Source: a virus
Strand: one strand, 5' to 3'
IMG/VR virus record: IMGVR_UViG_3300033148_003376
Location: 39,594-103,593 of that record
Length of the DNA: 64,000 bases
Part shown: positions 14,665-63,856 of the stretch, piece by piece
How the letters are laid out: the number at the start of each line of letters is the position of its first letter
How positions within the stretch are numbered: the first letter of the stretch is position 1
Made by a program: the position numbers and the translations under genes
Notes under the pieces: generated by a model
Told to the model about the DNA's origin: nothing
The model's input: the letters and a program-made list of their open reading frames with translations, nothing else
Database searches by the model: none

Positions 14665-15465
14665 CTACAACGTACCAACCGCGATGCCACCGCTAAACGA
14701 ATAATCGGTGAATCCGGCTGCAATGATGTTCGTTTCAAAACTCGCCTCATATTGTAAATCGAGAGCATCGAGTCTCGGGAAGATATAGTGTTTGATAAAA
14801 ATCTGGAGTTTAGTCAGAGTCTCGATCGGATTGGGAACAAGAGATTCATTCATATTAATTTCCATATCGAATGTCTGAAGCTCTGCCTCGTTCCCTCCGG
14901 ACAGTCTCACCGACGCGATCGACGATACAAGACTGTCATCCCCAGCGTCGTGAACCACTCTTAGATATGGATTTGCTGTATTCCAATCATCCACAATCTG
15001 TGCGATGGTCTTGATCCCGTCGAAATCAAGTACGATCGAATCTCCGATTCCCCCAACATCGACAGCTTCGTATGTCACACCCTCGTGGGTCGCACGAGAT
15101 TTTTGGTCAATCGACTCCCACCATTCGGTGATATTGAACTCGAACCCGAGGATTTTCAAAACCAGCTCAAGACCGTCTCGATGACTTTTGAGAAAATGCA
15201 CAAGGTTCAAGATCGAGTGCATGATGTCATATTCAACGTTCGTCAGAGTATCGATTACATTTTTGATGTATCCATAACCCGACTCGATGATGACTTCATC
15301 AATAACACGAGTTCTAACGAACTCAGGACCATGGTATTTGTATTTTACATCCTTGAGTTCTTCCTCTGACTTGTCGATCACATAGTCGAGCATCTCAGCC
15401 AGCTTTATGTAAAGCGACCGTTCTCTCAGCTTTTCAGGAATGAGTTCAAGGGAGTTGAAACCCAC
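14665..15465 (-). CDS. baseplate wedge subunit (T4 gp7 / P2 gpI position)
   Basis: Follows gp6-like gene; LKS.RDGLELVLKILG...ITEWWE motif. Confidence 0.55.
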   Translation of the reverse strand: MGFNSLELIPEKLRERSLYIKLAEMLDYVIDKSEEELKDVKYKYHGPEFVRTRVIDEVIIESGYGYIKNVIDTLTNVEYDIMHSILNLVHFLKSHRDGLELVLKILGFEFNITEWWESIDQKSRATHEGVTYEAVDVGGIGDSIVLDFDGIKTIAQIVDDWNTANPYLRVVHDAGDDSLVSSIASVRLSGGNEAELQTFDMEINMNESLVPNPIETLTKLQIFIKHYIFPRLDALDLQYEASFETNIIAAGFTDYSFSGGIAVGTL

Positions 15466-45780: not shown

Positions 45781-46881
45781 TTACAACGCGTTCATCTTTT
45801 CCAGGAAATCACTTGCGACTGAGCCATACTCTACATGACTTTCCCAGATCGCATTCTTATTGTATTCCTTCAACTCGGCAGTCATGTAGTCTATCATCTT
45901 GGATTCTGATGAGATCTTTTTCGATTCTTTCATGAGTCTCACAAAGAACTCGATGGTCGCCAGTGATTCAGGAAGCGAAACAGCCGCAATCGGAGAGATC
46001 CGCTTGTTTTTACCGTAGAGACCGTTGATGTGCCAAGCAGCGACCTTGAGCATTGTCGTACGGAAGATCATGAGTCTGAGTTCATCCTTGATCGGAATGA
46101 CCCATGTGTCTTTACTGTGGTACTTCGCGCCGATTCGATCGTTGAGTCCGGTCTCGAAATCCCGTCGCTTGAACTTGCGTTTCTTCTTCCCGGCGAAGAT
46201 GTCGGTGAGTTTCTTGACCGGGAATAGCTTTGATGGAGTCGCGAGATCTCTCGTGTTCTTCTTCGAGTCCCAGGTACGTTTTCCCATCTTCTGTTTGAGT
46301 CCATCATGATAGAGATGGAGATCCACGTAGAATGGGAATGTTGCGCCTTCCTCGCCGCCACCGAGAGATGTTTCGAGTCTCACCTTGTATAGTGAAACAT
46401 CGATCTGAATATAAAACACCAGAGTTCGATCCGGTGTGAAAAATTCGTATTCAAGAAGTACGAGATCGCCATATAGACCAGTCGGTATTTTCTCGACCTC
46501 GCTATATTTGAGAGTCTTCCCTGAGTACTTCTCGAAATACTTCAGGTAGACATCCGGTTTGAACATGTCTTTGAGGAGCTTGAGAACGATCGTGGACTTT
46601 CGTCTCTTCTCTTCGGCGTCCGCTTCCCGTTCGGCTTGTCGACTGGATATTGATGTACCTTTACCGGTACCGTGTTTTTGTAGATACTCGTATGCCGCGT
46701 TGACCTTTTGTTGCATCTCGGTCGTACCACCTCGATCCGGATGGTGTTTGAGACTGGCCTTTCTGTAGACTACCTTGAGATCGTAGTCCTGGGTCGGATC
46801 GATCTCAAGAACTTCCATGGCCATCTCTGAGGTCATGTTGAATTCGAGAATAAGGTCGAGGAAGTCGGATGCGATAGTCAT
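45781..46881 (-). CDS. J-domain (DnaJ-type) protein, leader motif at both ends
   Basis: EVLEI...LKVVYRKASLKHHPDRGG..EMQQKVNAAYEYL; N-term MTIASDFLDLILE, C-term SVASDFLEKMNAL. Confidence 0.88.
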   Translation of the reverse strand: MTIASDFLDLILEFNMTSEMAMEVLEIDPTQDYDLKVVYRKASLKHHPDRGGTTEMQQKVNAAYEYLQKHGTGKGTSISSRQAEREADAEEKRRKSTIVLKLLKDMFKPDVYLKYFEKYSGKTLKYSEVEKIPTGLYGDLVLLEYEFFTPDRTLVFYIQIDVSLYKVRLETSLGGGEEGATFPFYVDLHLYHDGLKQKMGKRTWDSKKNTRDLATPSKLFPVKKLTDIFAGKKKRKFKRRDFETGLNDRIGAKYHSKDTWVIPIKDELRLMIFRTTMLKVAAWHINGLYGKNKRISPIAAVSLPESLATIEFFVRLMKESKKISSESKMIDYMTAELKEYNKNAIWESHVEYGSVASDFLEKMNAL

Positions 46882-46888
46882 GATTTCC

Positions 46889-47092
46889 TCACTTGATTCC
46901 GAGTCTCGAATAGAGAAGCCTGATATCGTTCGCAGTGCTACTCAGGGCACCGATCGCACCAGCGAGTTCTCGCTTGACTCTCTTGTTGTCTGTCGCTTTC
47001 GATTCGGTATTCATCGCCTGGGTACCCGAATCGATCGCATCGAGAATATCTTTCTTGTCTTTGATGAGTGTCTTTTCATCTCCGAATGGCAT
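46889..47092 (-). CDS. small hypothetical protein
   Basis: 67 aa, AAAGGA RBS. Confidence 0.6.
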   Translation of the reverse strand: MPFGDEKTLIKDKKDILDAIDSGTQAMNTESKATDNKRVKRELAGAIGALSSTANDIRLLYSRLGIK

Positions 47093-47105
47093 GATGATAT
47101 CCTTT

Positions 47106-47366
47106 CTACCGAATTTTGAGCTTCTTGTATTGTGACATGATGTAGCTTCTCTTTGACTTCAGTTCATTGATCGCGTAGTCGATCACCCTCGCGAGTTTTT
47201 GATCCGTTAACACGATCTCCGACCTCTCCATCTGGAGATTCGACACGGCTTTATCGATAGAGTCCATGACTGCGATTTCACTCTTTCTCAGAGCCTTGAC
47301 ATCGGAGTATTCCGGCTTCGCAATGGCTTCTTCGATGGTGTCGTTAAGATCTTGTACAAGGCTCAT
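47106..47366 (-). CDS. leader-tagged small protein
   Basis: GAGGTG RBS; MSLVQDLNDTIEEA. Confidence 0.8.
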   Translation of the reverse strand: MSLVQDLNDTIEEAIAKPEYSDVKALRKSEIAVMDSIDKAVSNLQMERSEIVLTDQKLARVIDYAINELKSKRSYIMSQYKKLKIR

Positions 47367-47376
47367 GATTCACCTC

Positions 47377-47437
47377 TTGACTTCAGTTTCACTTTATGGC
47401 AAAATTCGCGGAATTTCGTTTACGTAATCCCACGAAA
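47377..47437 (+). promoter_or_regulatory. antisense sigma70-type promoter plus palindrome, copy 2
   Basis: TTGACT-17-CAAAAT with TG extension; ttcgcggaatt...aatcccacgaa with longer loop. Confidence 0.65.
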
Positions 47438-47438
47438 C

Positions 47439-47663
47439 TTACTCGAACTTCCAACCTGAGTGTTTACCATCAAGAATAAGTTCGATTTGCTCCTTAGCTG
47501 CTTTCTCGCTGGCGGCATTCGTACTGATTTGATAAACGTTCGTCGGTCCTCCTTCATCATCGTTCAGGTCAATTTTGACATTGAAACTAAACTTGAGAAG
47601 CTTGGCCTTAGACTCGTTACATGCTTTCTTGATGTCATCCAGAAATTTCTTCGCAATTCCCAT
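47439..47663 (-). CDS. leader-tagged small protein
   Basis: AAGGAG RBS; MGIAKKFLDDIKKACNES. Confidence 0.8.
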   Translation of the reverse strand: MGIAKKFLDDIKKACNESKAKLLKFSFNVKIDLNDDEGGPTNVYQISTNAASEKAAKEQIELILDGKHSGWKFE

Positions 47664-47674
47664 GACTATCTCCT

Positions 47675-48652
47675 TTACGAACACATATTCAAAAGACGAT
47701 CTGCTTTCGACTCCGCTGGCTTGCCTTCGAAGTTCTCGACGAGTCTTGGCATCTTCCTACCAAGCTTATTGAACTTGGACTCCGGTGCAATGGTCAGATC
47801 CGGTGACGCGACCGACGACAGTCTTTTCAAAGCGTCTTCCAGTTTGTGATCGAGTAGATAATGGGAGATGATCAACTCTCGCAGATGTGCAAATGAGAAC
47901 CCGTCGGTGCGCTCAGAGAGTGCCTTGATCTGATCCGGCTTCTCGATTCCCTTGAGCTTGTGCTTGAGGTAGATCAGACGACCTTCTATCGGAGGATGTC
48001 CCACGTGAATGGTGTAATCGAATCTACCGGGACTCTTGACCCGTTCCGGGATCCGATTCAGATAGTTCGTGGTCGCGATGTAACAGACTCCGTCTACTGA
48101 CATGTTCCCATCGAGAAGCTGAAGGATCTCGTGTTCTCCATATTGCACCAGCTTGTCGAGATCTTCCATGATGCAAAGAAGCTTACGATCCGGTTCGACT
48201 TCCTTGAACATGCGAATCGCGTTGATTGTGATCCCGAGAGACTGGGTATAGAAAACGACGTCGTCCTTGGCGAGTGTGTCCTCGACGAGAATCTTGATCG
48301 CCGACGATTTACCGGATCGATGAGGTCCTTCGAGGAGCATTCCACGGTTATGCAGATACCCGATGTCGTGATACTTCTTTCCCTTCTTCCAGAACTTTTC
48401 GATCTGTGTGAGGATTTCGACATGTTCTTTCATGGGAAACCGGAGAAGCTCATCGCTCTTCAGATCCATTTCCTGGAAATAGACTCCCGCTTGATTACGA
48501 GATGGAACGTAGACACCGGGTTTCAATCTCTTGATGATCTCGATGTCCTCGGGAGCAGGTTTGCTCATACTCCCCTGTTGAATGTATTGTACGAGTTCAC
48601 GCTTTTTCTCTACAGCTTCGCACATACTGAGGAGTCTATCCGCTTTACCCAT
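47675..48652 (-). CDS. AAA+ ATPase (classical AAA clade, BCS1/FtsH-like module), leader motif at both ends
   Basis: GMLLEGPHRSGKS, LLCIMEDLD, ATTNY...PERVKSPGRFD, TDGFSFAHLREL; N-term MGKADRLLSMCE, C-term ESKADRLLNMCS. Confidence 0.88.
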   Translation of the reverse strand: MGKADRLLSMCEAVEKKRELVQYIQQGSMSKPAPEDIEIIKRLKPGVYVPSRNQAGVYFQEMDLKSDELLRFPMKEHVEILTQIEKFWKKGKKYHDIGYLHNRGMLLEGPHRSGKSSAIKILVEDTLAKDDVVFYTQSLGITINAIRMFKEVEPDRKLLCIMEDLDKLVQYGEHEILQLLDGNMSVDGVCYIATTNYLNRIPERVKSPGRFDYTIHVGHPPIEGRLIYLKHKLKGIEKPDQIKALSERTDGFSFAHLRELIISHYLLDHKLEDALKRLSSVASPDLTIAPESKFNKLGRKMPRLVENFEGKPAESKADRLLNMCS

Positions 48653-48696
48653 GAGAGATATCCTTTCAAACCAAGATGATATTTTGGGCATACCTT

Positions 48697-49577: not shown

Positions 49578-49868
49578 TTACTTGTTCTCAAGTCGAAAGA
49601 TGAGATCCCTGCTTTGGATCGTCCCGACCGAAATGATATCCATGGACTGAAGATTTTTCAAAGCAGTCGCATCTACTCTGAATGCTTTCTTACCTACGAT
49701 CTCCAGCATGAGTGTCGGTCCACTCTTCAAGACACGGTAGTATTGTTTCTTACCCCAGAAGTTTTGAAGGTCTCTGATGTTCTTGTCGTTGATACCTTCG
49801 ATGTCTTCTGCTTTGACCATGTCGTTGGATTCTTGAATTGAATTCAAAAGATCTTTCGCGATACCCAT
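49578..49868 (-). CDS. leader-tagged small protein
   Basis: GGGAG RBS; MGIAKDLLNSIQES. Confidence 0.8.
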   Translation of the reverse strand: MGIAKDLLNSIQESNDMVKAEDIEGINDKNIRDLQNFWGKKQYYRVLKSGPTLMLEIVGKKAFRVDATALKNLQSMDIISVGTIQSRDLIFRLENK

Positions 49869-49879
49869 GACAGTCTCCC

Positions 49880-50161
49880 TTACTGTGATTTTTCTGGATA
49901 ATGTCTATCCACGAAAAGCCATGCCGCTTTGACATTCTTCCCGGTGAGACTCTCGATTCTCACTAACTCCTGCCATGCCTTGATCTTGTCGTCTTTATAT
50001 TCGAGAGAGAATTTCAAAGACGAATTCCATCTTTCTCTGGTCTGACTCGGAAGACGGCCGAGTAGGTCCATGAGATCGTGTTTGTCTTGTATGGACAGAA
50101 CCGGTGTTTTCACTTTCTTTGCTTCTCCGATGGCATCGAGTAAGTCTTTCATGATACTCAT
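49880..50161 (-). CDS. leader-tagged small protein
   Basis: AAGGA RBS; MSIMKDLLDAIGEA. Confidence 0.8.
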   Translation of the reverse strand: MSIMKDLLDAIGEAKKVKTPVLSIQDKHDLMDLLGRLPSQTRERWNSSLKFSLEYKDDKIKAWQELVRIESLTGKNVKAAWLFVDRHYPEKSQ

Positions 50162-50172
50162 GATGATTCCTT

Positions 50173-51777
50173 TCACGACTCCATTTCGTTTGTTTCGTCT
50201 TCTACCTTGATCACTCCAGTCAAGCCGATCATGTTGAGCTGTTGACCGAGGAATTTGGCGAATGCTTCCATGTCGACTTTCTCGGCAAGGGGAGATTCTT
50301 CGTCTTCGGTGAGGTTGTTCAGGAAGTCATTGATATTACTCAACATATTCACGGACGTGTCTAAAAACTCGAGTTTGTCGATATTGTCTATCTCGATGAG
50401 CTTGTTCCTGAAGTCAACGACAATATCATCATCTTTCGCGCCTATGCCTTTATTCGCCAAATGAATCTGACAAACACGTCTGACACCATCCCGAATAGCT
50501 CTTTGGATATTTTTTAGACGACGAAGATACCTGGCATAGCGTCTGAGGATCTCGCCTTTATCCATGCCTTCCGAAAGGAAGATGACCTCATAGAGTACAC
50601 CGATAGAAGAGCAACACACCTTTCTGAGATCTTCTATAGACGCGAGTAAATCGTCGGGTTCGTCGGATTTGTAATCCATCTTGTTCACGGTACCCTTATC
50701 ACCAAAGATAGGAATACACTTGAACTTGCCAGCGGTACCCAGAACGTTTTCGAGTGTCATCTGACCTTGGCTGACATCGATAGCGATCTTCTCGTTGATG
50801 ATGCCTTCGAGCCGACGACAGACTCGTGTGGCTTTGTCGAGATCATACCCAGGAGGAACCTGGATACTGAGGATCGTTCCGCTAGTCATCTTCTGAAGCT
50901 TCGTCGCTGGGACAAGCTGTTCCATCAATTCCAGCTCTTTGAACTTATTGATCACTGGATATATGACACCTTTACCCACACGAACGAATCTCGGGATATT
51001 AGCGAAGCATGTCTCAGGGTCTTTGACACCATAATGCTTCTGGATATCGATTCTGATCTTCTTACCCGGGAGTGTGAATATCGCGTAGTCTGAACTATCT
51101 TTCAACTTGAGTGTGTACCCGTGTCGACCAGCCGCAAGTTCGATGTACCCGTCGATCTTCCTACCTTTCGAAACCGCGAGTACGGTACCCTGTTCAACAC
51201 AGTCGATAAGTTCTTCGAGACCACCTTTATTCGAGACCTTCGGCTTGAGGATGTATTCGCCGTAGCGGAGCACGTCCGGTAGGATATCGAGAATAAGCGT
51301 ATCGAATCCAATCCGCTCGTCGAGGATCTTCAGCTCTTTGTTTATATGTTTGTTTTCTGAAGATACCGACAGGACTTCCCCGCTTGAGACTTCCGGAGTA
51401 AGCGCGTCTTCCACCATCTGATCGATGATGACATCGACGAGGTAGAAATCAGAGATCCTGTCGATCTCCTTGATGATGTTTTTTCGGAGACGAGATACTC
51501 TGGTGTACGCGGCAACCATTGACGTGGACGCGAACTTGTTCTTCATGAGACTGCGAATGTCCGCGAGACTTTCAGCGAGAGATCCATAGTCGCTGACATT
51601 GAGAGTCGTTTTCAGGATATCCAGTTGTGATTCGTTGAGACTACTCAAAGACTCGATGACCGAGTTGACCGGACTAGAGAGATCCTCGTCTCCAACGACA
51701 TCTGTTACCGCTGCAGTCATAGCACGAGTTCTCGTATCAACTGGTGTCTTGGATTTCTTTTTACGTATAAATGGCAT
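50173..51777 (-). CDS. portal protein (T4 gp20-like)
   Basis: 534 aa between terminase and protease; VDVIIDQMVEDAL, DVLRYGEYIL, ELELMEQ, LRRYARYLRRLKNIQ. Confidence 0.75.
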   Translation of the reverse strand: MPFIRKKKSKTPVDTRTRAMTAAVTDVVGDEDLSSPVNSVIESLSSLNESQLDILKTTLNVSDYGSLAESLADIRSLMKNKFASTSMVAAYTRVSRLRKNIIKEIDRISDFYLVDVIIDQMVEDALTPEVSSGEVLSVSSENKHINKELKILDERIGFDTLILDILPDVLRYGEYILKPKVSNKGGLEELIDCVEQGTVLAVSKGRKIDGYIELAAGRHGYTLKLKDSSDYAIFTLPGKKIRIDIQKHYGVKDPETCFANIPRFVRVGKGVIYPVINKFKELELMEQLVPATKLQKMTSGTILSIQVPPGYDLDKATRVCRRLEGIINEKIAIDVSQGQMTLENVLGTAGKFKCIPIFGDKGTVNKMDYKSDEPDDLLASIEDLRKVCCSSIGVLYEVIFLSEGMDKGEILRRYARYLRRLKNIQRAIRDGVRRVCQIHLANKGIGAKDDDIVVDFRNKLIEIDNIDKLEFLDTSVNMLSNINDFLNNLTEDEESPLAEKVDMEAFAKFLGQQLNMIGLTGVIKVEDETNEMES

Positions 51778-51790
51778 TAGACGTCCTTGT

Positions 51791-52144
51791 TCAATTTGGA
51801 ATTATCGTCGTGACAAACGTAGTCGGGAAAACGTGTCCGTCTACAATCTTCGATTTGAATTCACCCGTCATCTTGTAACCGATCATGTCGACAAGTTTCT
51901 TGAGTCTCCTGGTGTACGCCTTCTTGTCTTTTTCGATGTACTGTTCCAGGGTCTTGTACTCAACAGTGATTTCTTTTTCTTTCTCAGTGGTGTTGAGAAG
52001 TCTCGCTGCTTTCACCGCTGTGTATCCAGACCCAAAACTCAGATCACGATCTTTGTTCAGGATCTCGATATTCCTGTGAAGAATGATGTGACCTGGAATC
52101 ATACTTCTCTCGACGAGATCCAGGAATTCTCTTGCGATACCCAT
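51791..52144 (-). CDS. leader-tagged protein
   Basis: MGIAREFLDLVERS. Confidence 0.8.
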   Translation of the reverse strand: MGIAREFLDLVERSMIPGHIILHRNIEILNKDRDLSFGSGYTAVKAARLLNTTEKEKEITVEYKTLEQYIEKDKKAYTRRLKKLVDMIGYKMTGEFKSKIVDGHVFPTTFVTTIIPN

Positions 52145-52161
52145 GATTCATCTACCTTCGT

Positions 52162-52662
52162 TTACTTTGCCTTGTCGACGATCTGAACAGCAGTCTTGAG
52201 CTGTTTCGAGAATTTCTCTGGGATCTTCCTTCCGGACCTGACGAGGGAATCGAACAACGTCTTCGCGATATGTAGATCTCCTTCGATACCGTCAGAGTTT
52301 TCGTCGAGGACTTCGAGAATCTTCTCATCGTCTATTCCGAGATGGTTCGAGACTGTCTTGAATTTCTGCTCAACACCTGTGATGTGATTGCCGATGTCTT
52401 CAGCGTCGTCGAATTCCGTCTTGATCTCGGTAAGTGCAGTGTCAAGAGCTTTGGCTACATCTTGACACTCATTGCTCACGAACGACTCGATCGTATCGAT
52501 GTAGGAGAACATCTCTTGAAGCAACCCGTCTTCTTTGGCTCTTGTTTCGAGATCGACCAGGTCTACCGTTGAAAGAGTGCGTCGAAAATCGAATGACTTG
52601 ATTCTACCGAGTTTAGTCTTGGCTTCATCGAATTGTTTGAGAATGTCGTCTGCTCTACCCAT
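52162..52662 (-). CDS. leader-tagged helical protein
   Basis: GAGGT RBS; MGRADDILKQFDEA. Confidence 0.8.
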   Translation of the reverse strand: MGRADDILKQFDEAKTKLGRIKSFDFRRTLSTVDLVDLETRAKEDGLLQEMFSYIDTIESFVSNECQDVAKALDTALTEIKTEFDDAEDIGNHITGVEQKFKTVSNHLGIDDEKILEVLDENSDGIEGDLHIAKTLFDSLVRSGRKIPEKFSKQLKTAVQIVDKAK

Positions 52663-52703
52663 GATAGATTACCTCTTTGCTTTCGTTTCTATCGTCTCAA
52701 AAA

Positions 52704-52732
52704 TTATATACTATGCGTAGCATAGTATATAA
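52704..52732. repeat. perfect 13-bp AT-rich inverted repeat
   Basis: ttatatactatgc-gta-gcatagtatataa. Confidence 0.85.
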
Positions 52733-52755
52733 AAATCCTTTAGTCCAGTCTTTTC

Positions 52756-52810
52756 TTGACTAGGGTTTTGACGTATGATAGAATTCGTGAAATTTTAAAT
52801 TCCACGAAAA
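52756..52810 (+). promoter_or_regulatory. antisense sigma70-type promoter plus palindrome, copy 3
   Basis: TTGACT-17-TAGAAT with TG extension; ttcgtgaaatt-tta-aattccacgaa at 52784-52808. Confidence 0.8.
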
Positions 52811-53125
52811 CTACCTGATACCCAACGACATCTTCGCATGATCACCATGGTAATAAACATTTTTCTTGTTCGGATGTGGCTCGACCTTGTCGATGAGATC
52901 CATGGCTTCACCCTTGTTACCCGCGTCAATGAAAAACGCCACACCGTTCCCGGCATTGGCATTGACGACAGTCTGGTCCCAATTCAGTCCACCGACCTTG
53001 CCTGACATCTTGGCTTTCTTCTTAGCCTTTTCGAGATTTCCGACGTACTTCTCGTCTGCCCACATTATGATGGTTTTGCTCACGGCTTCGCGTACTTTCG
53101 TAAGGACATCTGATGCTCGACTCAT
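52811..53125 (-). CDS. leader-tagged protein
   Basis: GGAG RBS, ATGA coupling; MSRASDVLTKVREA. Confidence 0.8.
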   Translation of the reverse strand: MSRASDVLTKVREAVSKTIIMWADEKYVGNLEKAKKKAKMSGKVGGLNWDQTVVNANAGNGVAFFIDAGNKGEAMDLIDKVEPHPNKKNVYYHGDHAKMSLGIR

Positions 53126-53562
53126 TGGTATCTCCGTGAAAGCGTCTTCGTGATAAACAATCTTCTCTTCGACGACTCGTGATGATTCGTACAGAACTTT
53201 CTCGACATCAAACGTGGAGTATCCAGACAGCATCTACCGATCACCCTTGGTGGAATCTTTGAGAGGAGATTCACCTGAAGGAGTGAGATATCCCGGGAAA
53301 TGTACCGTCGCCATTCGCGAAGGTTGTGAAGCACTTTACCGGTTCCGTCAAGATGATGAATCATATGGATCGGAAATCCGGTCTCGCAGGTGAGTAACGG
53401 TGGAGACTCATACGTCTGTCCAATTGAGATTACTGACCAACCGGAACTGTCCACATCATCGCCGACGTAGTTGGTCGACCCGGGCCATGGAATATTCTGT
53501 ATGTCTGGCCAACGAAGATCCATGTTTCTGTAATATCGTGGATATAAAGACTCCGCTCCCAT
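53122..53562 (-). CDS. hypothetical protein
   Basis: 146 aa, GAGGAG upstream, stop coupled to the next gene. Confidence 0.55.
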   Translation of the reverse strand: MGAESLYPRYYRNMDLRWPDIQNIPWPGSTNYVGDDVDSSGWSVISIGQTYESPPLLTCETGFPIHMIHHLDGTGKVLHNLREWRRYISRDISLLQVNLLSKIPPRVIGRCCLDTPRLMSRKFCTNHHESSKRRLFITKTLSRRYQ

Positions 53563-53574
53563 TCGATCATCTCC

Positions 53575-54246
53575 TCACTGCCAGTTTCCGATGATCTTCT
53601 CTGCTTCGAGAAGCTTGTCGAGAAGGTTGTTCAATCCTTCGACGCTGTCTTTGATATGGAAACCCTTGCTACCGAGATCCATGTTGAAGTTCTCGCTACC
53701 CGTCGAGAAAGGAATCTCTCCGAAATAGTTGAACTTGATGACTCCTTCGCCGGTCTCGTCATCCACCGTTACCTTGATGAAATCCTTCTCTCGTTTCTGG
53801 AGCATTTCCAAGAATGACTTGGCACCGCTCTCGAAGTCTTTGAAGTCTGCCTTCTTGATCGGTTTCATCTTCTCATTGAGAGACTCGGTAAATTCAGTAG
53901 AAAGAGCCTTGATCTCGGCTGGTGTCATGATCGACGACATACCCGAAGGCCAACCGGTGACACCACCTTTGTTGCTCGGGTTCGCCCACCTGAAAAGAAC
54001 GGGTGCGCTGTTGAGACCAGTCCGACCGGTATTGTACACGGTGACATCAACGGCTTGTGCGTCTGGATACTTCTTCAAGATCGTACCAAGAACCTTCTTC
54101 GGGTTCTTGAACTTGTCAATATCCGAAAAGGGGAGATTCTCCGTCTTGTAACTACCCGGTGTATTCACTCCGATGGTTATGTGCGGACCATCGAATATTT
54201 TCTTAGCTTCCTTCATTCGCTTGAGGACTTCACTTGCTTTGGACAT
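53575..54246 (-). CDS. leader-tagged two-domain protein
   Basis: AAGGAG RBS; MSKASEVLKRMKEA; internal FTESLNE linker. Confidence 0.8.
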   Translation of the reverse strand: MSKASEVLKRMKEAKKIFDGPHITIGVNTPGSYKTENLPFSDIDKFKNPKKVLGTILKKYPDAQAVDVTVYNTGRTGLNSAPVLFRWANPSNKGGVTGWPSGMSSIMTPAEIKALSTEFTESLNEKMKPIKKADFKDFESGAKSFLEMLQKREKDFIKVTVDDETGEGVIKFNYFGEIPFSTGSENFNMDLGSKGFHIKDSVEGLNNLLDKLLEAEKIIGNWQ

Positions 54247-54823
54247 CACTCTTCTCCTTCTTTGGTGGTATAACGATCTTGCATTCGACGAAGTCATACA
54301 ACGGTTGTCCCCATTTAGGAAGCACTGTTGTTTTCTTGATGTACCACTTACCCGATATATCCTTGTCCTTGATCATGATGAACTTCCCGGATTTGGTTGG
54401 TTTCTCCGAGAGGATATAGTACCGGTGGCGAGCCTTGCCAGTCATAGAGTCGAACGATGCGACGATGCTTTGAGCGAGTTGGTTCTTTGGAACACATTTC
54501 ACCTCGATCTCGTCGGCTTTGATCGGCTTACCCGATGCTAAGGCAATAACCACCGTTGGCATGGCAATACAGATTCGAAAGAGTCTCATCATATCAGTCT
54601 CCTTTCGTTCAATGACGACTGCGTAGAGTCCGGTCACCAGCGCAAGAATAAAATATGGAATACACGTGCCGAGTGCAACCATGAACGTGATTACTCCAAA
54701 GTCAATCGGATTCTGGGACATGTTCACAGCCGGGATAATGATCGCTGAAAAAGATCCAATTCCGAATCGTACGTACCATGAGAGGATCACATCCTTGGTG
54801 ATAATCGACGTCTTCTCTGTCAT
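54230..54823 (-). CDS. membrane protein
   Basis: About three hydrophobic segments in the N-terminal half. Confidence 0.7.
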   Translation of the reverse strand: MTEKTSIITKDVILSWYVRFGIGSFSAIIIPAVNMSQNPIDFGVITFMVALGTCIPYFILALVTGLYAVVIERKETDMMRLFRICIAMPTVVIALASGKPIKADEIEVKCVPKNQLAQSIVASFDSMTGKARHRYYILSEKPTKSGKFIMIKDKDISGKWYIKKTTVLPKWGQPLYDFVECKIVIPPKKEKSDVQSK

Positions 54824-55254
54824 GACTTCACCTTTCTCAGGGATCCCAGATTTACACGGTAGACCATCCCGTCTTCAGACGTAACAGACGCCTGTCCGTA
54901 TCGGGGAAGAATCCTGCTCACGGTATAGACATGATCCTTACCGTGCTTCGTTATCATGTCCCGCTCGATCTGGTTCGTCGGTTTCGAGAGTTTGACGGAG
55001 ACTCCCTTTTTGATCCCATTGTCGTTGGCTTCGTCTACGTGGTCATCGTCATCGGGTTTGTAACAACTACACTCTTTCACCGCTTTTGGCCAGATGTCCT
55101 TCCATGGACACTTGTCTCCCTCCTTGATCACGCCACGTTTTGTATTCTTACATCCTGGGACACAGACATCATCTTTGAAGTGAGCGCAGATAGTTCCCTG
55201 GTTTGCTTCGTTTGCTTTGTCGATTGTATCGAGGAGATTGTTGACGAGGGTCAT
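54820..55254 (-). CDS. leader-tagged protein with Cys-rich domain
   Basis: MTLVNNLLDTIDKANEA; six Cys; linker HVDEA. Confidence 0.75.
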   Translation of the reverse strand: MTLVNNLLDTIDKANEANQGTICAHFKDDVCVPGCKNTKRGVIKEGDKCPWKDIWPKAVKECSCYKPDDDDHVDEANDNGIKKGVSVKLSKPTNQIERDMITKHGKDHVYTVSRILPRYGQASVTSEDGMVYRVNLGSLRKVKS

Positions 55255-55281
55255 TGGTGAAGTCCTTTCAAAGAAACAAAG

Positions 55282-55854
55282 TCATAGGAAAAAGATGTCT
55301 TCTATTTCCAATTCTTCCCATTCAATGTGATCGTCTTTGTGAAAATCAGGGGACACGACGAGTATAGATCCATCGTAATCACGTCGTGTATAAAGCGAAC
55401 TATTAAACCAGTCCCGTACTCGATCTTCGGAAGAAGGATTGTCCACTATGATATAGTCTGCAGATATTCCAGCGATAGCGCACCCAATAGCATCAAACCG
55501 ACAGAACCCTCCCTCTGCAGTCTCGATATTGAATCTTGTGGGACAATTCTGTTCTGTCAATTCTATGGAAAATTTGGACATGGTCTCACGAGCAAGATTC
55601 GCTGTCCATTTCGCAATTTTCATGTCCCTGGAGATTACGAGTATACGAGCTTTCGGACGGGTGTCCAGGATGTGCATCGGGAGTACAGCGGAGATCAACC
55701 CGTCGCCGTCGTAGTCATTCGACGTCTTGATCAGAAAATGAGATTCTTCTCGGTTCACAAATCTAGCAAGAAGATTCCACATTTCCATTATCCGCCGATC
55801 CATCTCTGGATTCTCTCTGTTCAAACAAGCGTCGAGTTCTTCAATAGATGACAT
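55282..55854 (-). CDS. degenerate paralogue of the terminase large-subunit ATPase domain
   Basis: Colinear with TerL N-domain: LISAVLPMHIL/LVSRRLPAYIF, AIGCAIAGISADYIIVDN/GVGAGITGLGGHYLLIDD, VRDWFNSSLYTR/ILDWYRSTFYTR; Walker A absent. Confidence 0.75.
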   Translation of the reverse strand: MSSIEELDACLNRENPEMDRRIMEMWNLLARFVNREESHFLIKTSNDYDGDGLISAVLPMHILDTRPKARILVISRDMKIAKWTANLARETMSKFSIELTEQNCPTRFNIETAEGGFCRFDAIGCAIAGISADYIIVDNPSSEDRVRDWFNSSLYTRRDYDGSILVVSPDFHKDDHIEWEELEIEDIFFL

Positions 55855-55869
55855 GAGCTTCCTTTGGTT

Positions 55870-57381
55870 TTAGAATTTATACCCGAATAGTCGTCGTACT
55901 TCTTCACCAACTGAATAACCTTGACCATCACTGCCCGCGAGAGCATCGAGCCAACTCGCCGAATGAAGCTTCAAAAGTGCTTGGCTCGACGAGTCCGTGC
56001 GATCGTTCGTCGCCGCATTGGGAAACGACACAAGCTCATCAATATAATCTTTGACCCATGGCGCATCGATAGTAGTAGGATCCGGTACCCAGATATTCCC
56101 TGCTTCAAATTGAGGAGAAACAGCACGTAAACGCGCTACCTTGGAATCTTGTCCTGGATTAAACCCAGTGACACCAGGAACGTGTTCACACATCGTCTCG
56201 ATAACTGCTGGACCATTGGCTTTATCCTCGACGGCGTGTTCTATTGACATCGGCCATTTCCCAGCCATGTCTTTCATCGCCGAAAGAGTCCCGATAAATC
56301 CCGTACGCTCGTGATACATATCGAGTAGATATCTCCGAGGACCAATCGTCCCCCAGACAGTCCCACAGACAAACGAGTTGTTATCACCGGCTTTGAAGTT
56401 ACAGTCCCACGATGTCATGATCACATCGAACTGTTCGATCGGTGGCATCTCTCGATATTTTCGGAACCATGTCCGCTCAATGATGTTTCCGGATTCAGGA
56501 GAAGGTCTTTGCTGATACAGTGCGTTCCAGACCTGGGTACCGAGAGATGCTTTGATCTTCGCGAGTCGTTCGAGGTTATATTTCCATTCCCAAAGAGGAT
56601 CTCCGATTTTACGTGGGTCGTCTGGGTTGCTATCATCCTCTTTTACCGCTGGAAAATTGACGAGTACCCATTGGTCTGCGTCTTCGTCTTCAGCCATGAA
56701 TTCAAGGAGAGAACCAATAAGGTCCGCTTCATGCCAACGTGTAGCGGTAATGAGAATTCCGGCGTCTTTTTCCGCTCTCGTATAGAATGTACTGCGATAC
56801 CAATCGAGGATAGTTTTTCTGGTCGTCTTCGATAACGCTTCTTGCATGTTTTTGAGAAAGTCGTCGATTAGAAGATAGTGTCCTCCAAGTCCTGTGATCC
56901 CGGCTCCAACTCCAGCCGAACGATATGCTCCTTCATAATTGACGATTTCGAAGAGATCTGAATTCCGAAGATATGATCCATGTGCTGTCGTACGGACGTT
57001 CTTAGACCAGAGTGTTGTATTTGGAAAGACCTGTTGATACTCGTTCGAATCGATGATCCGCTGAACATCGCGGTTCATTCTTGATGCAAGGTCGGATCCG
57101 TATGAACATGAGATGATCGACGTGTTGGGATTTCTGCCGAAAATATATGCTGGTAATCTCCTAGAAACTAGCTCGGATTTTCCATGGCGAGGTGGCATCG
57201 TAACGATGAGTCTTTTGATCTCACCTCTGATGAACTTGTCAAGGACTTCACAAAGAACGGCATGGTGCCAATTTACCTGATAGTCCTTCTTCGTGTACGT
57301 CGTGAAATCGAGCAGACTCCTCCGCGCGAATTCTGCGTCAATCGAATTTACAGTGACTGGGACTTGGATAGGTGCGTTCAC
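55870..57381 (-). CDS. terL: terminase large subunit
   Basis: MPPRHGKS Walker A, LLIDD Walker B, TRWHEADL, ALYQQRP, SWD nuclease, VEDKANG, FPNAATNDRTDSSSQAL. Confidence 0.95.
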   Translation of the reverse strand: MNAPIQVPVTVNSIDAEFARRSLLDFTTYTKKDYQVNWHHAVLCEVLDKFIRGEIKRLIVTMPPRHGKSELVSRRLPAYIFGRNPNTSIISCSYGSDLASRMNRDVQRIIDSNEYQQVFPNTTLWSKNVRTTAHGSYLRNSDLFEIVNYEGAYRSAGVGAGITGLGGHYLLIDDFLKNMQEALSKTTRKTILDWYRSTFYTRAEKDAGILITATRWHEADLIGSLLEFMAEDEDADQWVLVNFPAVKEDDSNPDDPRKIGDPLWEWKYNLERLAKIKASLGTQVWNALYQQRPSPESGNIIERTWFRKYREMPPIEQFDVIMTSWDCNFKAGDNNSFVCGTVWGTIGPRRYLLDMYHERTGFIGTLSAMKDMAGKWPMSIEHAVEDKANGPAVIETMCEHVPGVTGFNPGQDSKVARLRAVSPQFEAGNIWVPDPTTIDAPWVKDYIDELVSFPNAATNDRTDSSSQALLKLHSASWLDALAGSDGQGYSVGEEVRRLFGYKF

Positions 57382-57388
57382 GGGTGTA

Positions 57389-57571
57389 TCATTTACCCTG
57401 TCTTGGAGATGTGGAGAGCGATGTCCGTCGACCGTCTACCATGTATTCGTGTAGAAGACATGTGTACCACGGAGCTTGTACATACGGAGATGTAACGACT
57501 AGATATTGATCGCTACTGTGTTTGTTCAGTAGAACACGGTTATACCATTTCTCTATTGTAGGAGTGTTCAT
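57389..57571 (-). CDS. small hypothetical protein
   Basis: 60 aa, ATGA coupling. Confidence 0.45.
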   Translation of the reverse strand: MNTPTIEKWYNRVLLNKHSSDQYLVVTSPYVQAPWYTCLLHEYMVDGRRTSLSTSPRQGK

Positions 57572-58242
57572 ACGTCGCCTTCTCCTCCGACTGTTTGAAT
57601 CTCGAACGAATACACTCCGTCTTTTTCTTTGACGCTGGTGTTCAAAACATATCTTGATCCTTTCGGCGCAAGACCATGGGTACTGTATTTATTGATCTTG
57701 TACTTTCTTAGGATCTTTCTGATCTTATCCATAGAGATTGTTCTTGAAGCATCTTCTACAGCAACTCCATCCGTGCCACTGATCATGATAGATCCGCCGA
57801 AATCTCCATCGGGTTTCGTAATCTCTGTCACTTTCAGGTTGAAGCTCTTTGCTACCTTGTTGACCATCGACGTAATAGTCTTCCAAAGACCTCCTTGTAT
57901 CTTCGTAATCTGTACAGTGATAATCTCGGGACTTCCACCCGAAAGACTGCCGATCACGAAGTCTTTCGGAACAATCGCTTTGAGTTGGTCTCTGATCTCT
58001 TCAGATCGACGTACGATTTCATCTCTGGACATCTCACCGGTGTCCTTGTAGTAATCAAACATGATGACAAGGGTATCTTTTCCGTGTTGACGAACCTTGT
58101 AACCAGATTGTATCTTGCGTTTCGTCCATATCGACGTTTTCAATCCAAGCTTTTTGAGATAAGGCAAAATGGCTGTAGGCTCAACAGCGAGCATACCCAT
58201 CGCTTCTTCAATGACGTCAAGAAGATCTCGTACGATTCCCAT
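57568..58242 (-). CDS. leader-tagged protein
   Basis: AAGGAG RBS; MGIVRDLLDVIEEA. Confidence 0.8.
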   Translation of the reverse strand: MGIVRDLLDVIEEAMGMLAVEPTAILPYLKKLGLKTSIWTKRKIQSGYKVRQHGKDTLVIMFDYYKDTGEMSRDEIVRRSEEIRDQLKAIVPKDFVIGSLSGGSPEIITVQITKIQGGLWKTITSMVNKVAKSFNLKVTEITKPDGDFGGSIMISGTDGVAVEDASRTISMDKIRKILRKYKINKYSTHGLAPKGSRYVLNTSVKEKDGVYSFEIQTVGGEGDV

Positions 58243-58254
58243 TTTCTTCTCCTT

Positions 58255-58743
58255 TTACGCGGCTCTTGTGCCACCATGTGGAATTCTCTTTGCAAGACCT
58301 ATGATCAGCTCGTCTGCCTGACCCATGATCCTCTTTTGATCTTTCTCCGGGAAGCTATCTATGTTCTGCAGTTTGAATCTCATCTGGTCAATAGAGTGGA
58401 TATCCTTGGGGAACATCTTCTTGAGATTCTTGAGTGCTACGAGTTGTTGATTGACTCGACCACCTTGTGCCTTCTCGATGAGACTGAGAAGATCCTCGAC
58501 GAGGGATTCTTTCGGCGCGGGTCCGTATGTCTTTCCATATCGAGCACGGATCTCTTTTCTCTTCTCTATCGAGAGACTGTACCAGATGCTACCGATAGTC
58601 TGTCGGATCCGTTCGTCGTCGTAGGTGGGACTGGATTTCTTGATATCCTTTACCATCTTGTCCCACCATTCAGATGGTGCCTTGAGGCTAGGCGCAGTCT
58701 CCGCTTTTTCAACGAGACTGAGAAAGGATTGTACTAGGTTCAT
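58255..58743 (-). CDS. protein with two leader copies (fusion of two tagged modules)
   Basis: MNLVQSFLSLVEKAE and internal ESLVEDLLSLIEKAQ. Confidence 0.8.
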   Translation of the reverse strand: MNLVQSFLSLVEKAETAPSLKAPSEWWDKMVKDIKKSSPTYDDERIRQTIGSIWYSLSIEKRKEIRARYGKTYGPAPKESLVEDLLSLIEKAQGGRVNQQLVALKNLKKMFPKDIHSIDQMRFKLQNIDSFPEKDQKRIMGQADELIIGLAKRIPHGGTRAA

Positions 58744-58988
58744 GATACTTTCCCCAGTGAAAACTTGACTTCGTGTACATTGAATTCCAGACCATCAGAC
58801 GTACAATTCAAATTGGTAACATGGTTGGTCTTGACGACCACGTTAGTATCAGGGGCTTTGAAAGTAATCTTGTCCTGTGTGATTACATCGACTCTATAGA
58901 GACCACTTACAGATGTTCCAAGTGTAGTCATGGAAAGCCTGACTTTCTTTCCGAACAGGCTTATGAGATGGGTTTGTAAATTCATCAT
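58740..58988 (-). CDS. hypothetical protein, paralogue of 58985..59239
   Basis: Shared LQ..L....M.T.G..VSGLY..D....KI...T.DG..F.V..V.F.L pattern. Confidence 0.7.
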   Translation of the reverse strand: MMNLQTHLISLFGKKVRLSMTTLGTSVSGLYRVDVITQDKITFKAPDTNVVVKTNHVTNLNCTSDGLEFNVHEVKFSLGKVS

Positions 58989-59239
58989 CTCAGATGAAAC
59001 TCTACGTTATTGACTGTGAAGGTGAATCCGTCAGTGGTGTACTTCAAACCCTTGATGTACTTCGTCTCGATAACAATCCTCGTACACGACTGAATGAGAA
59101 TGATTTTCTCGTCAGAAACATCGTCGATCTTATAGAGACCCGACACGGCAAGTCCGTGTGTCAACATGGTGACTTTGAGTCTATCAGGAATGGATGTCCT
59201 GAGATAATCTTGAAGTGTCAAAAGATGTATCCTCTTCAA
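58985..59239 (-). CDS. hypothetical protein, paralogue of 58740..58988
   Basis: Same shared pattern; TTGA/ATGA coupling. Confidence 0.7.
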   Translation of the reverse strand: MKRIHLLTLQDYLRTSIPDRLKVTMLTHGLAVSGLYKIDDVSDEKIILIQSCTRIVIETKYIKGLKYTTDGFTFTVNNVEFHLR

Positions 59240-59566: not shown

Positions 59567-59953
59567 TCACTCCCATGGTTCTTTGGACATTTTACCTTCT
59601 ATCGCTTTGATGAGTGCATCTCTTGTGTACGGTTTGTAAATAATGTAATCAAATAGTTTCTTGTTTTCAACAATGCCACCAGTCGACGCGACAATCCTTG
59701 GACATTTATTCAGTGTCTTTCTGAGCCAACGAGTGAAATCCTCGCCGTTTCCACCGTCTCCGTTCATCTTTATGTCACAAAGAATGACATTGATGTCTAT
59801 CGTCTTAATGATCTCCGCTGCAGACTTGAGCGTGGTAGCAGTAAGGATATAGTAAGACTGATCAGAGAGAAATCGTTTGATGACGTCGAAGACCCATGGT
59901 TCGTCTTCAATGATGAGGATCGTTTTCGTTTTCAGTCTCCTCTTGACAAACAA
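59567..59953 (-). CDS. single-domain response regulator (CheY-like receiver)
   Basis: ILIIEDE, VILCDIKM (phosphoacceptor Asp), NG.D, IVASTG, YKP; start codon uncertain. Confidence 0.85.
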   Translation of the reverse strand: MFVKRRLKTKTILIIEDEPWVFDVIKRFLSDQSYYILTATTLKSAAEIIKTIDINVILCDIKMNGDGGNGEDFTRWLRKTLNKCPRIVASTGGIVENKKLFDYIIYKPYTRDALIKAIEGKMSKEPWE

Positions 59954-60804: not shown

Positions 60805-61161
60805 TCACTGATCCGATGTTTGAACTTTGAAAAAGTACGACCCTTCATCTTCGATAACCTCTGACGCGTAAACAAAGAGCTTTCCGCTAGGTGCCTTTTC
60901 AAGAGTATCGAAGACTTTGATTCCGTGTTTCTTCCCTACTGAAACAAGTTCTTTCAATATCGAAGATCGTGCCTTTTTCGTTTTCGATTCGTCGTCGCCT
61001 TGTATCTCAATACCACCCTCATCTCCATCCGGGTCAAACAGATCATTCAGCTTGAATCCCTTGGCATTCTTCTTGACGACAGCCTCGACATCTTTCCAGA
61101 TCTTTCCAACCGCTTCATTGGCCTTCTCGACGGTCTCCAACACGTCCTTCACGATTCCCAT
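60805..61161 (-). CDS. leader-tagged protein
   Basis: GAGGAG RBS; MGIVKDVLETVEKANEA. Confidence 0.8.
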   Translation of the reverse strand: MGIVKDVLETVEKANEAVGKIWKDVEAVVKKNAKGFKLNDLFDPDGDEGGIEIQGDDESKTKKARSSILKELVSVGKKHGIKVFDTLEKAPSGKLFVYASEVIEDEGSYFFKVQTSDQ

Positions 61162-61209
61162 GACAACTCTCCTCATGAATTTGATTCAACCATTTCATAA
61201 ACCGTTGCT

Positions 61210-61401
61210 TCATACTCCTTTTACGAACTCAACCCAATGTCTCGTCGACGCGGCTTTCATTCCCATCTTCACCTGACGCAGTTGAATGAAATTGACGATC
61301 TCGTCGACGGACTTCCCTTGTGCCTTGAGCCGTTGGATCATGTCTTCAACCGACTCTACTGACGCCTCGATCATGTCAAGAAATTTCTTCGCGATTCCCA
61401 T
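61210..61401 (-). CDS. leader-tagged small protein
   Basis: MGIAKKFLDMIEASVES. Confidence 0.8.
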   Translation of the reverse strand: MGIAKKFLDMIEASVESVEDMIQRLKAQGKSVDEIVNFIQLRQVKMGMKAASTRHWVEFVKGV

Positions 61402-62164: not shown

Positions 62165-62536
62165 TTACTTCTTGATCCCCTGGTCCTTCAAGATATCGTC
62201 GAGTAGGTTCCGAAACTTCACGTCGTCGAGGGTTCCACCCGCTTTGGTGTACGCATCGTAAATATCAGAGCCCCTCGAATTCTTCTCGTCGTTGTAGCTC
62301 TTCACCAGGAGATTGATGTCTTTCAACTCTTTCTTCCCAAGCGGAGTTCGATCCGTCTGTCGTCGATACGACGAAAGGACACCGACTTCCGCGACTCCTC
62401 CGATGTCGTCGAGAGACTTGTACGGTTTCAGGTCGGGAAGCTTCTTCGGTCCACGGAGCTTGTCGAACTCTCCCCAGAGAAACATATCCCTCGACGCTTC
62501 TTCGATGGACTTGAGAAGATCTTTAACGATACCCAT
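62165..62536 (-). CDS. leader-tagged protein
   Basis: AAAGGA RBS; MGIVKDLLKSIEEA. Confidence 0.8.
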   Translation of the reverse strand: MGIVKDLLKSIEEASRDMFLWGEFDKLRGPKKLPDLKPYKSLDDIGGVAEVGVLSSYRRQTDRTPLGKKELKDINLLVKSYNDEKNSRGSDIYDAYTKAGGTLDDVKFRNLLDDILKDQGIKK

Positions 62537-62571
62537 GATAAATCCTTTCCGAGCGATCAAATATGACCACG

Positions 62572-62904
62572 CTAGCGACTTCCGAAACGAATAGCATCGG
62601 CTATTTTACATGTATTCTTTTCTCTCTGCTCCACTGTCCCAGCTTGTTGTTTTCCACTCAGGTACCAGTCATAGAGATGGCCTATCTCATGATGAATCGC
62701 TTCACCGAACTCGATCGCGTTTAGACCTTTTGTCACAAGAATCTCATTTCCCTCATTCGGGTAATGAATTCTAGCAACGACGTCATCGGTGATCTTCTCT
62801 ACAATTCTCATTCTGACCGGTATATGGATTTCAACAACATCAGTCATTGTCTTTCGATCTCCGGTATTTTCCACGACCCATACATACAAACCATGATTCT
62901 TCAC
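62572..62904 (-). CDS. small HExxH zincin-like metallopeptidase
   Basis: AIHHEIGH with a downstream Glu (QRE). Confidence 0.6.
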   Translation of the reverse strand: MKNHGLYVWVVENTGDRKTMTDVVEIHIPVRMRIVEKITDDVVARIHYPNEGNEILVTKGLNAIEFGEAIHHEIGHLYDWYLSGKQQAGTVEQREKNTCKIADAIRFGSR

Positions 62905-63284
62905 ACGGTGATATACGCGACGACTTCGTACTGGTTATCTTTTCCAGTGAGATCGTGCCAGGAGACGTTCAATCCGACATTACTCACCGACTGTGGTGAA
63001 TGTGGATCGTCGGTCTTGAATTCAAGGTTGAACAGATGGGTACCTTTTTCTTTCTCGCGAAAGATATCAGCAGAGACGACATCTGCGATCTGGATGTCAT
63101 GTTTGTCGAGTACACCGTGGATCTTGTTCACGGCGTCACCATGAGACTTGAATCGACCGTTCCCGTCGAACCCAGCTTTTCGTAGATCGTCGTTGATCTT
63201 CGAGCCGAGTTTCTTGTCTAGCTTCGCACCGATGGACTTCTTTGCTTCAGCGACTGTGTTAAGAAGGTCTTGTACGAGAGTCAT
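62901..63284 (-). CDS. leader-tagged protein
   Basis: GGAG RBS; MTLVQDLLNTVAEA. Confidence 0.8.
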   Translation of the reverse strand: MTLVQDLLNTVAEAKKSIGAKLDKKLGSKINDDLRKAGFDGNGRFKSHGDAVNKIHGVLDKHDIQIADVVSADIFREKEKGTHLFNLEFKTDDPHSPQSVSNVGLNVSWHDLTGKDNQYEVVAYITV

Positions 63285-63307
63285 GGTGATGGTCTCCATT
63301 AAAACGA

Positions 63308-63856
63308 TTAAACCGATATGATGTATTTATCCTTGAATCTCTTGTATTCATTCTTCGTCATGACCTGGTGTGCCATAACGATCCGTCGTCTATCTGGACC
63401 TTTACCCGAATAGTCCCATAGAACACCGTCAATCACAGACATGGAATGACCTGGTGTCCCTATGAGGAATTTCCCCTTTGGAAATGTCTTGATGAATTTA
63501 CTGATTGACATATTGGGTTTAAACTTGGCATAAAAAGATTTGACCAAAGTCTTCTCATTATATTTCCAAGACGTACCATCCTTGGATCGAAACGATGCCC
63601 TGAACGCAACAGAACCTGGAATGATACGTTCGATGTCAACGAGTTCGAATCCGGCGTCTCGAAGAACTTCAATATTTCCAGATGTGCCGAAGATACACTT
63701 GTCTGATGAAACGTCAAACGCTTCGAGAGAAAAATTAGTACACCGACCATGTCCTTTGAGGGAAACATACTTTACTGACTTGCCATCGAATATAGCACCG
63801 CTCGTTTGGATCTCGGCTTGTTCAATGACATTTAGAAGGTCTTGCACGAGAGTCAT
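63308..63856 (-). CDS. leader-tagged papain-like peptidase candidate
   Basis: MTLVQDLLNVIEQAE; GRCTNFSL (Cys), GHSMSVIDG (His), LWD (Asp). Confidence 0.7.
   Translation of the reverse strand: MTLVQDLLNVIEQAEIQTSGAIFDGKSVKYVSLKGHGRCTNFSLEAFDVSSDKCIFGTSGNIEVLRDAGFELVDIERIIPGSVAFRASFRSKDGTSWKYNEKTLVKSFYAKFKPNMSISKFIKTFPKGKFLIGTPGHSMSVIDGVLWDYSGKGPDRRRIVMAHQVMTKNEYKRFKDKYIISV

Follow-up and report, generated by a model that had tools for sequence, protein, structure and literature searches.

Genomic setting of ORF190

The question raised by this locus was whether a short open reading frame directly behind the large terminase gene (terL) of an uncultured phage encodes a second, catalytically dead copy of the TerL ATPase domain and, if it does, what such a protein might do. 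The window, by which we mean the whole stretch of 64,000 nucleotides that was analysed, comprises bases 39594–103593 of the 103,593-bp IMG/VR virus record IMGVR_UViG_3300033148_003376, which has a completeness of 57% according to CheckV. The region of interest is a late operon on the minus strand, from an uncultured myovirus, and around the open reading frame, designated hereafter as ORF190, the operon contains genes for a tail sheath (phrog_23), a head maturation protease (phrog_207) and a portal protein. The portal gene (50173–51777) was identified by a weak T4-type match of 22.4 bits, just below the Pfam cut-off of 22.9, and is separated from terL by about eight lineage-specific genes. The features on which the analysis is based are as follows (positions are those of the window, strands follow the window convention).

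55870–57381, minus strand: resident terL, 503 amino acids, GTG start, intact Terminase_6N and Terminase_6C domains (phrog_38, E 7e-102)
55858–55864, minus strand: Shine-Dalgarno-like AAGGAAG with the ORF190 ATG 3 nt further on; similar GGA-type sites are found at other genes of this genome
55282–55854 (stop included), minus strand: ORF190, a catalytically dead TerL ATPase-domain paralogue of 190 amino acids, as judged by homology, fold and coding score
55696–55725, minus strand: degenerate Walker A, residues 44–53 TSNDYDGDGL, with Gly50 in the Lys column, Asp51 in the Ser/Thr column and Asp47 in the Arg column
55435–55458, minus strand: degenerate Walker B, residues 133–140 DYIIVDNP, first Asp kept, second replaced by Asn139
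55330–55356, minus strand: degenerate motif III, residues 167–175 VSPDFHKDD against TRWHE-DD in the family; Thr, Arg and Trp gone, His172 and Asp175 kept

A preliminary description of this DNA, made from the letters alone, had reported an intact frame of 190 codons with a ribosome-binding site at 55282–55854, and both the ATG start and the AAGGAAG at 55858–55864 were recovered here. The start codon lies 15 nt past the TAA of terL (55870–55872), and ORF190 and terL, both on the minus strand, share one reading frame with the TAA and five sense codons in between (55852–55872). No terminator-like site was found between the two genes, in a scan whose promoter and terminator counts were overall at the level of shuffled sequence, and neither RNA families nor an intron were detected near ORF190. 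With only 15 nt separating it from terL in this late operon, and no terminator in the gap, ORF190 is most likely produced jointly with TerL.

The stretch from 50173 to 57381 has the appearance of a mosaic head module that combines the T4-type portal (weak match) with a phrog_38 TerL. The GTG start of terL has a weak ribosome-binding site, and the 57381–58242 segment upstream holds only an ORF of 60 amino acids and a tagged ORF (see below) of 224 amino acids. No small terminase was recognisable in this segment, and the TerS of vir524, the closest named relative, had no match anywhere in the record.

Several other genes of the window were noted. At least 16 otherwise unrelated minus-strand proteins encoded between 30284 and 63856 share the N-terminal sequence G-I-A/V-K-D-L-L-x-x-I-E-E-A, a putative capsid-targeting or cargo tag. 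Sixteen tagged proteins scored 9.7–13.9 bits against an HMM of this leader, and neither ORF190 nor TerL is tagged. Examples are encoded at 47439–47684, 49578–49868, 49880–50176, 51791–52144, 54820–55254, 60805–61176, 61210–61401, 62165–62560, 62901–63299 and 63308–63856. Pfam searches identified a DnaJ-domain protein (366 amino acids) and an AAA ATPase (338 amino acids) among the tagged genes at 45781–48691. Two tandem paralogous small genes at 58740–59239, encoding 82 and 84 amino acids (33% identity, E 5e-17), had no family match, and a stand-alone response-regulator receiver protein of 128 amino acids (PF00072, 52 bits) is encoded at 59567–59953, upstream of the packaging genes.

Sequence homology and predicted fold

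A BLASTP comparison of ORF190 with the resident TerL gave an alignment of 178 residues (E 2e-11, 21% identity) that was colinear with TerL residues 46–222, in agreement with the colinearity to the TerL N-terminal domain proposed in the preliminary description. Against an HMM of the family ATPase domain, built from 48 family TerLs with ORF190 left out, the protein scored 91.6 bits over HMM positions 23–191. Searches with phmmer/HMMER of 1.84 billion representative proteins returned, besides ORF190 itself, 80 other proteins at E-values of 1e-6 to 1e-3; those tested among them were TerLs of the phrog_38 type, and all 61 of the 61 aligned had intact motifs. The identity of ORF190 to any TerL was at most 30%. 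Its only PHROG match was phrog_4758, an ATPase-only terminase family (E 1.2e-5). No Pfam family was matched at E ≤ 1, so the threshold for Terminase_6N was not reached, and nothing meaningful was found in NCBIfam or in PADLOC, the library of the latter consisting of defence and not of anti-defence proteins. ORF190 is homologous to the ATPase domain of TerL, at a level of similarity far beyond chance.

An AlphaFold2 model of ORF190 for which a TerL alignment was given as input reached a pLDDT of 86.8 and a pTM of 0.83, and the single-sequence model had a pLDDT of 36.9. Because the former could lean on the TerL alignment, the alignment-free match in the ESM Atlas matters: there, the model of the exact ORF190 sequence had a pTM of 0.71 and matched clusters of TerL proteins with a TM of 0.80–0.82. 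Comparison of the ORF190 model with solved large terminases gave the following similarities.

PhiV-1 TerL (8dgc_E, the chain from the Avs3 complex): Z 17.1, 169 residues aligned, rmsd 2.7 Å
P74-26 TerL: Z 16.2
T4 gp17: Z 15.4
Sf6 gp2: Z 15.0
HK97 TerL: Z 14.3

TerLs headed the PDB ranking, with generic DEAD-box and NAT10 helicase folds scoring lower, and among the best 30 matches in BFVD every one with a name was a terminase. Structural similarity to TerL, which the preliminary description had put forward as a check, was present in both comparisons (Z 14–17 to solved TerLs; TM 0.80–0.82 in the Atlas). As modelled, ORF190 is a compact RecA-like core of the ATPase domain of phrog_38/T7-type TerLs.

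Loss of the catalytic motifs

All 62 aligned family members have the lysine of Walker A and the Asp-Asp pair of Walker B, and the R-W/L-H of motif III is nearly invariant among them. ORF190 alone deviates, with Gly50-Asp51 for Lys-Ser, Asp47 for the P-loop arginine, Asp138-Asn139 in Walker B and PDFH for TRWH. The replacements listed in the preliminary description, of the Walker A sequence MPPRHGKS by TSNDYDGD, of the Walker B sequence LLIDD by IIVDN and of TRWHEAD by PDFHKDD, were all exact in the alignment. It had also described the nuclease domain as absent, and ORF190 indeed ends 15 residues past motif III and has no Terminase_6C match. Missing, in addition to the whole nuclease domain, are about 10 residues past Walker B, about 10 past motif III and the lid. 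Retained are LPxxILxxxP, GxGxxIxGxxADYIIVD, DWFxSxLYTR, the core strands and the final core strand (W-x-hydrophobic). ORF190 is acidic (pI 4.6, net charge -15), whereas the ATPase domain of the resident TerL is neutral (pI 7.0, net charge 0).

With replacements at the Lys and Ser of the P-loop, at the second acidic residue of Walker B and at the TRW of motif III, ORF190 is very unlikely to bind or hydrolyse ATP in the canonical way or to handle DNA. That it is a pseudo-ATPase acting by binding only is a well-supported prediction.

Evidence for a real gene

Under the codon model of this genome the ORF190 frame was the best of six (+0.09 per codon), and its coding score fell at the 12th percentile among the ORFs of 150 amino acids or more in this genome. 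The probability of a stop-free frame of 190 codons by chance is about 1e-5. In a substitution-only simulation of neutral evolution started from the ORF190 sequence, the frame was still open in 3% of cases at 30% amino-acid change, in 0.2% at 50% and in 0 of 2000 at 70%. The terminal branch of ORF190, at 3.1 substitutions per site, was five times as long as the median for the family (0.62). No nucleotide repeats or nucleotide similarity beyond chance were found between ORF190 and terL. An antisense ORF of 174 amino acids on the plus strand (55327–55851) had a negative coding score and was dismissed as a shadow frame.

ORF190 is a real gene with a frame kept open by selection. Because neutral decay rarely leaves a frame open at such divergence, most of the divergence must have arisen under selection for an open, foldable frame, counting the periods before and after the loss of catalysis together. 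The earlier argument for a pseudo-ATPase and against a recent pseudogene is upheld by the TerL-ATPase fold, the loss of catalytic motifs that do not vary in the 62 relatives, the positive coding score, the simulation of neutral decay and the lack of a nucleotide repeat shared with terL.

Origin and distribution

In similarity to ORF190 the resident TerL ranked only 81st of 83 (23.5 bits, against 35–44 bits for the others), and at positions where ORF190 shows the family consensus (AD...DxP) the resident TerL has derived states (GH...DDF). A free tree placed ORF190 apart from the resident TerL; a sister relation of the two was not rejected by the AU test (p = 0.24). Descent from a T4-type gp17 as a relic was ruled out, ORF190 grouping with phrog_38/4758 and not with the T4 TerL family.

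No orthologue of ORF190 was found in 5.8e9 clustered proteins by a word-based search or in 1.84e9 representatives by HMMER, making it a singleton. Its matches in a phage collection included no P1-type records. A second ORF resembling the TerL ATPase domain was present in none of 85 related terL loci (TerL identity 33–62%), 76 of which had at least 700 nt downstream of terL. Scans of metagenomes and IMG/VR with TerL returned no close relative having a downstream region. In the relatives inspected, the ORF directly after terL encoded 475 amino acids (vir524) or 832 amino acids (L001). Within the whole record, terL and ORF190 were the only TerL-like sequences, and there was no third. An early ORF of 162 amino acids with a GRRSGKT P-loop (genome positions 14857–15345; L011:1858–2346) was considered as a piece of a terminase and rejected, as it resembled neither TerL nor a PHROG family.

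The nearest named TerL to that of this phage (51% identity) belongs to a Caudoviricetes genome of 38.5 kb assigned to Methanomicrobiales. The contigs that carry the closest relatives of the resident TerL are 10–62 kb long, and for one a methanogen host has been assigned.

Comparison with known systems

ORF190 shares its predicted RecA-like core with the phrog_38/Terminase_6N TerLs, of which PhiV-1 TerL and T7 gp19 (8DGC, 9O4E, 4BIJ) are the nearest solved; beyond these, the next solved relatives are P74-26, T4 gp17, Sf6 gp2 and HK97. It differs from the phrog_38 TerLs in failing every catalytic feature, in having no nuclease domain and in being acidic instead of neutral.

The nearest published analogue, and the only stand-alone TerL-like protein that we found, is T4 vs.8, which has intact motifs. 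This protein is a stand-alone homologue of the ATPase domain of T4 TerL that is toxic together with EcAvs2 and whose role is not known (PMC13601566). Like vs.8, which is about 200 amino acids long, ORF190 is encoded by a separate short gene, consists of a TerL-ATPase-like domain only and occurs in a phage that also has a complete terL. Unlike ORF190, vs.8 keeps both Walker A and Walker B (PMC13601566). It furthermore belongs to phrog_1488, derived from a T4-type TerL, which was not among the matches of ORF190, and its gene is located in the early region and not beside terL, where ORF190 lies. Similarity between ORF190 and vs.8/phrog_1488 was not detectable by BLASTP (best E 1.0).

Split terL genes, which consist of an ATPase-only part (phrog_4758) and a nuclease-only part (phrog_5573), offer a second comparison, phrog_4758 being the best PHROG match of ORF190. 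In contrast to such genes, ORF190 adjoins a complete terL and has dead motifs, and no nuclease-only partner follows it, the next ORFs (144 and 197 amino acids) having no terminase match. The clamp-loader delta-prime subunit, a dead paralogue that keeps its fold, may offer an analogy for a regulatory pseudo-subunit, with only the ASCE fold in common with ORF190. We found no published description of a dead TerL paralogue.

Possible functions of ORF190

Among the explanations considered we ranked first, as a tentative reading, that ORF190 is a non-catalytic binding partner of the phage's own packaging machinery, a role which we infer from the position of the gene, its very probable co-expression with terL, the kept scaffold and the precedent of dead ASCE subunits. 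Regulation by an inactive subunit is familiar from ASCE ring ATPases, clamp-loader delta-prime being one example, and TerL mutants without catalytic activity assemble together with the wild type. The TerL-ATPase scaffold of ORF190 would occupy a surface that normally receives the ATPase domain of TerL, on a neighbouring TerL subunit or on another component of the motor, and would keep TerL inactive or unassembled, or modulate it, up to the point at which the motor is built on the portal. At such an interface the acidic loop present instead of the P-loop could stand in for the phosphates of the nucleotide. ORF190 probably acts in the cytoplasm and is not loaded into the capsid as cargo, because it is without the N-terminal cargo tag of this phage (no match to the leader-tag HMM even at E ≤ 1000). 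A C-terminal tail mimicking a conserved portal-binding tail of TerL was also considered and dropped; the family has no conserved C-terminal motif.

Several points count against a packaging partner. If a dead subunit entered the motor ring, one would expect packaging to be poisoned. The resident TerL appears not to be the closest relative of ORF190, and its sequence gives no sign of co-adaptation, since it is poorly similar and is derived where ORF190 is consensus-like. ORF190 is a singleton, and all 85 related packaging modules do without a partner of this kind. Its coding score, finally, is only at the 12th percentile.

Immune evasion, which we ranked second and consider unlikely, would have ORF190 blunt the sensors of the TerL ATPase domain (Avs1–3, Upx), either as a non-activating decoy for the sensor pocket or as a shield for monomeric TerL. 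For recognition by EcAvs2 and Upx the ATPase domain of TerL suffices, and sensors of this type seem to be directed at monomers (PMC13601566; PMC13581612). The best structural match of the ORF190 model was PhiV-1 TerL as bound by Avs3, production at the same time as TerL would suit the need, and the long branch of ORF190 fits a gene in an arms race. TerL-like non-terminase activators such as T4 vs.8 have been speculated by the authors who described them to be anti-defence proteins (PMC13601566). Set against this is the way in which terminases are read: SeAvs3 reads the active-site residues of TerL and the bound ATP, and in EcAvs2 a bridging ATP contacts the ATP of the terminase, in addition to charge complementarity (PMC13601566). 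These published recognition modes speak against ORF190 as a simple decoy for Avs2 or Avs3, which depend on the active site and its ATP; ORF190 lacks a P-loop and carries a net charge of -15 instead of 0, so the features that are read are lost or inverted. A protein of ATPase fold that binds a sensor would more likely trigger it, as vs.8 does, and we found no published description of a terminase-like decoy. We consider it decidedly unlikely that the acidic loop, by mimicking a nucleotide, would cap the inter-subunit face of monomeric TerL (or the sensor pocket) and hide TerL from Avs/Upx until assembly on the portal.

It is likewise unlikely, in our estimate, that ORF190 is a relic of an old partial duplication of terL, or of a displaced terL, left open by luck or weak selection. 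Its singleton status and absence from the 85 related loci, its low codon score for this genome and the loss of the catalytic residues would all fit a relic, and a duplication from the resident lineage was not rejected (AU p = 0.24). Such an origin is difficult to reconcile with an open frame of 190 codons (chance about 1e-5) when neutral change of 30–50% leaves 3% to 0.2% of frames open, with a Shine-Dalgarno site of its own and with a core fold and structural motifs that are complete while specifically the catalytic residues are gone; no nucleotide similarity to terL remains, either. Interference between phages, in which ORF190 as a dominant-negative mimic would poison the phrog_38-type TerL motors of competitors or satellites and the resident TerL would have diverged enough to escape, seems improbable to us. 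Packaging interference by small binding proteins has a precedent in satellites, where SaPI Ppi and PICI Rpp act on TerS, and ORF190 is closer to generic TerLs of the family than to the resident TerL. The argument is purely inferential, however, and among thousands of TerLs the top scorer is bound, through sampling alone, to exceed any individual TerL. Read-through of the terL TAA, yielding a C-terminal extension of TerL in the form of a TerL-ORF190 fusion of 699 amino acids, is the most improbable of these explanations and one to which we attach hardly any weight. It would make use of the shared frame, which remains open for 195 amino acids after the TAA, but a shared frame is expected by chance in one third of cases and is probably a coincidence here. 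ORF190 has its own Shine-Dalgarno site and ATG, the C-terminus of TerL is already full length relative to its homologues, and read-through of TAA is rare in prokaryotes.

As ORF190 is a singleton of an uncultured phage, its study will be possible only by heterologous expression. Among the proteins of tailed phages none is more conserved than TerL, which is also a principal target of pattern-recognition immunity in bacteria. A dead, acidic copy of only the domain that is sensed, probably produced alongside the working enzyme, could point to a further level at which the packaging motor is controlled or, alternatively, to a new way to hide a protein that is unable to mutate away from its sensors.
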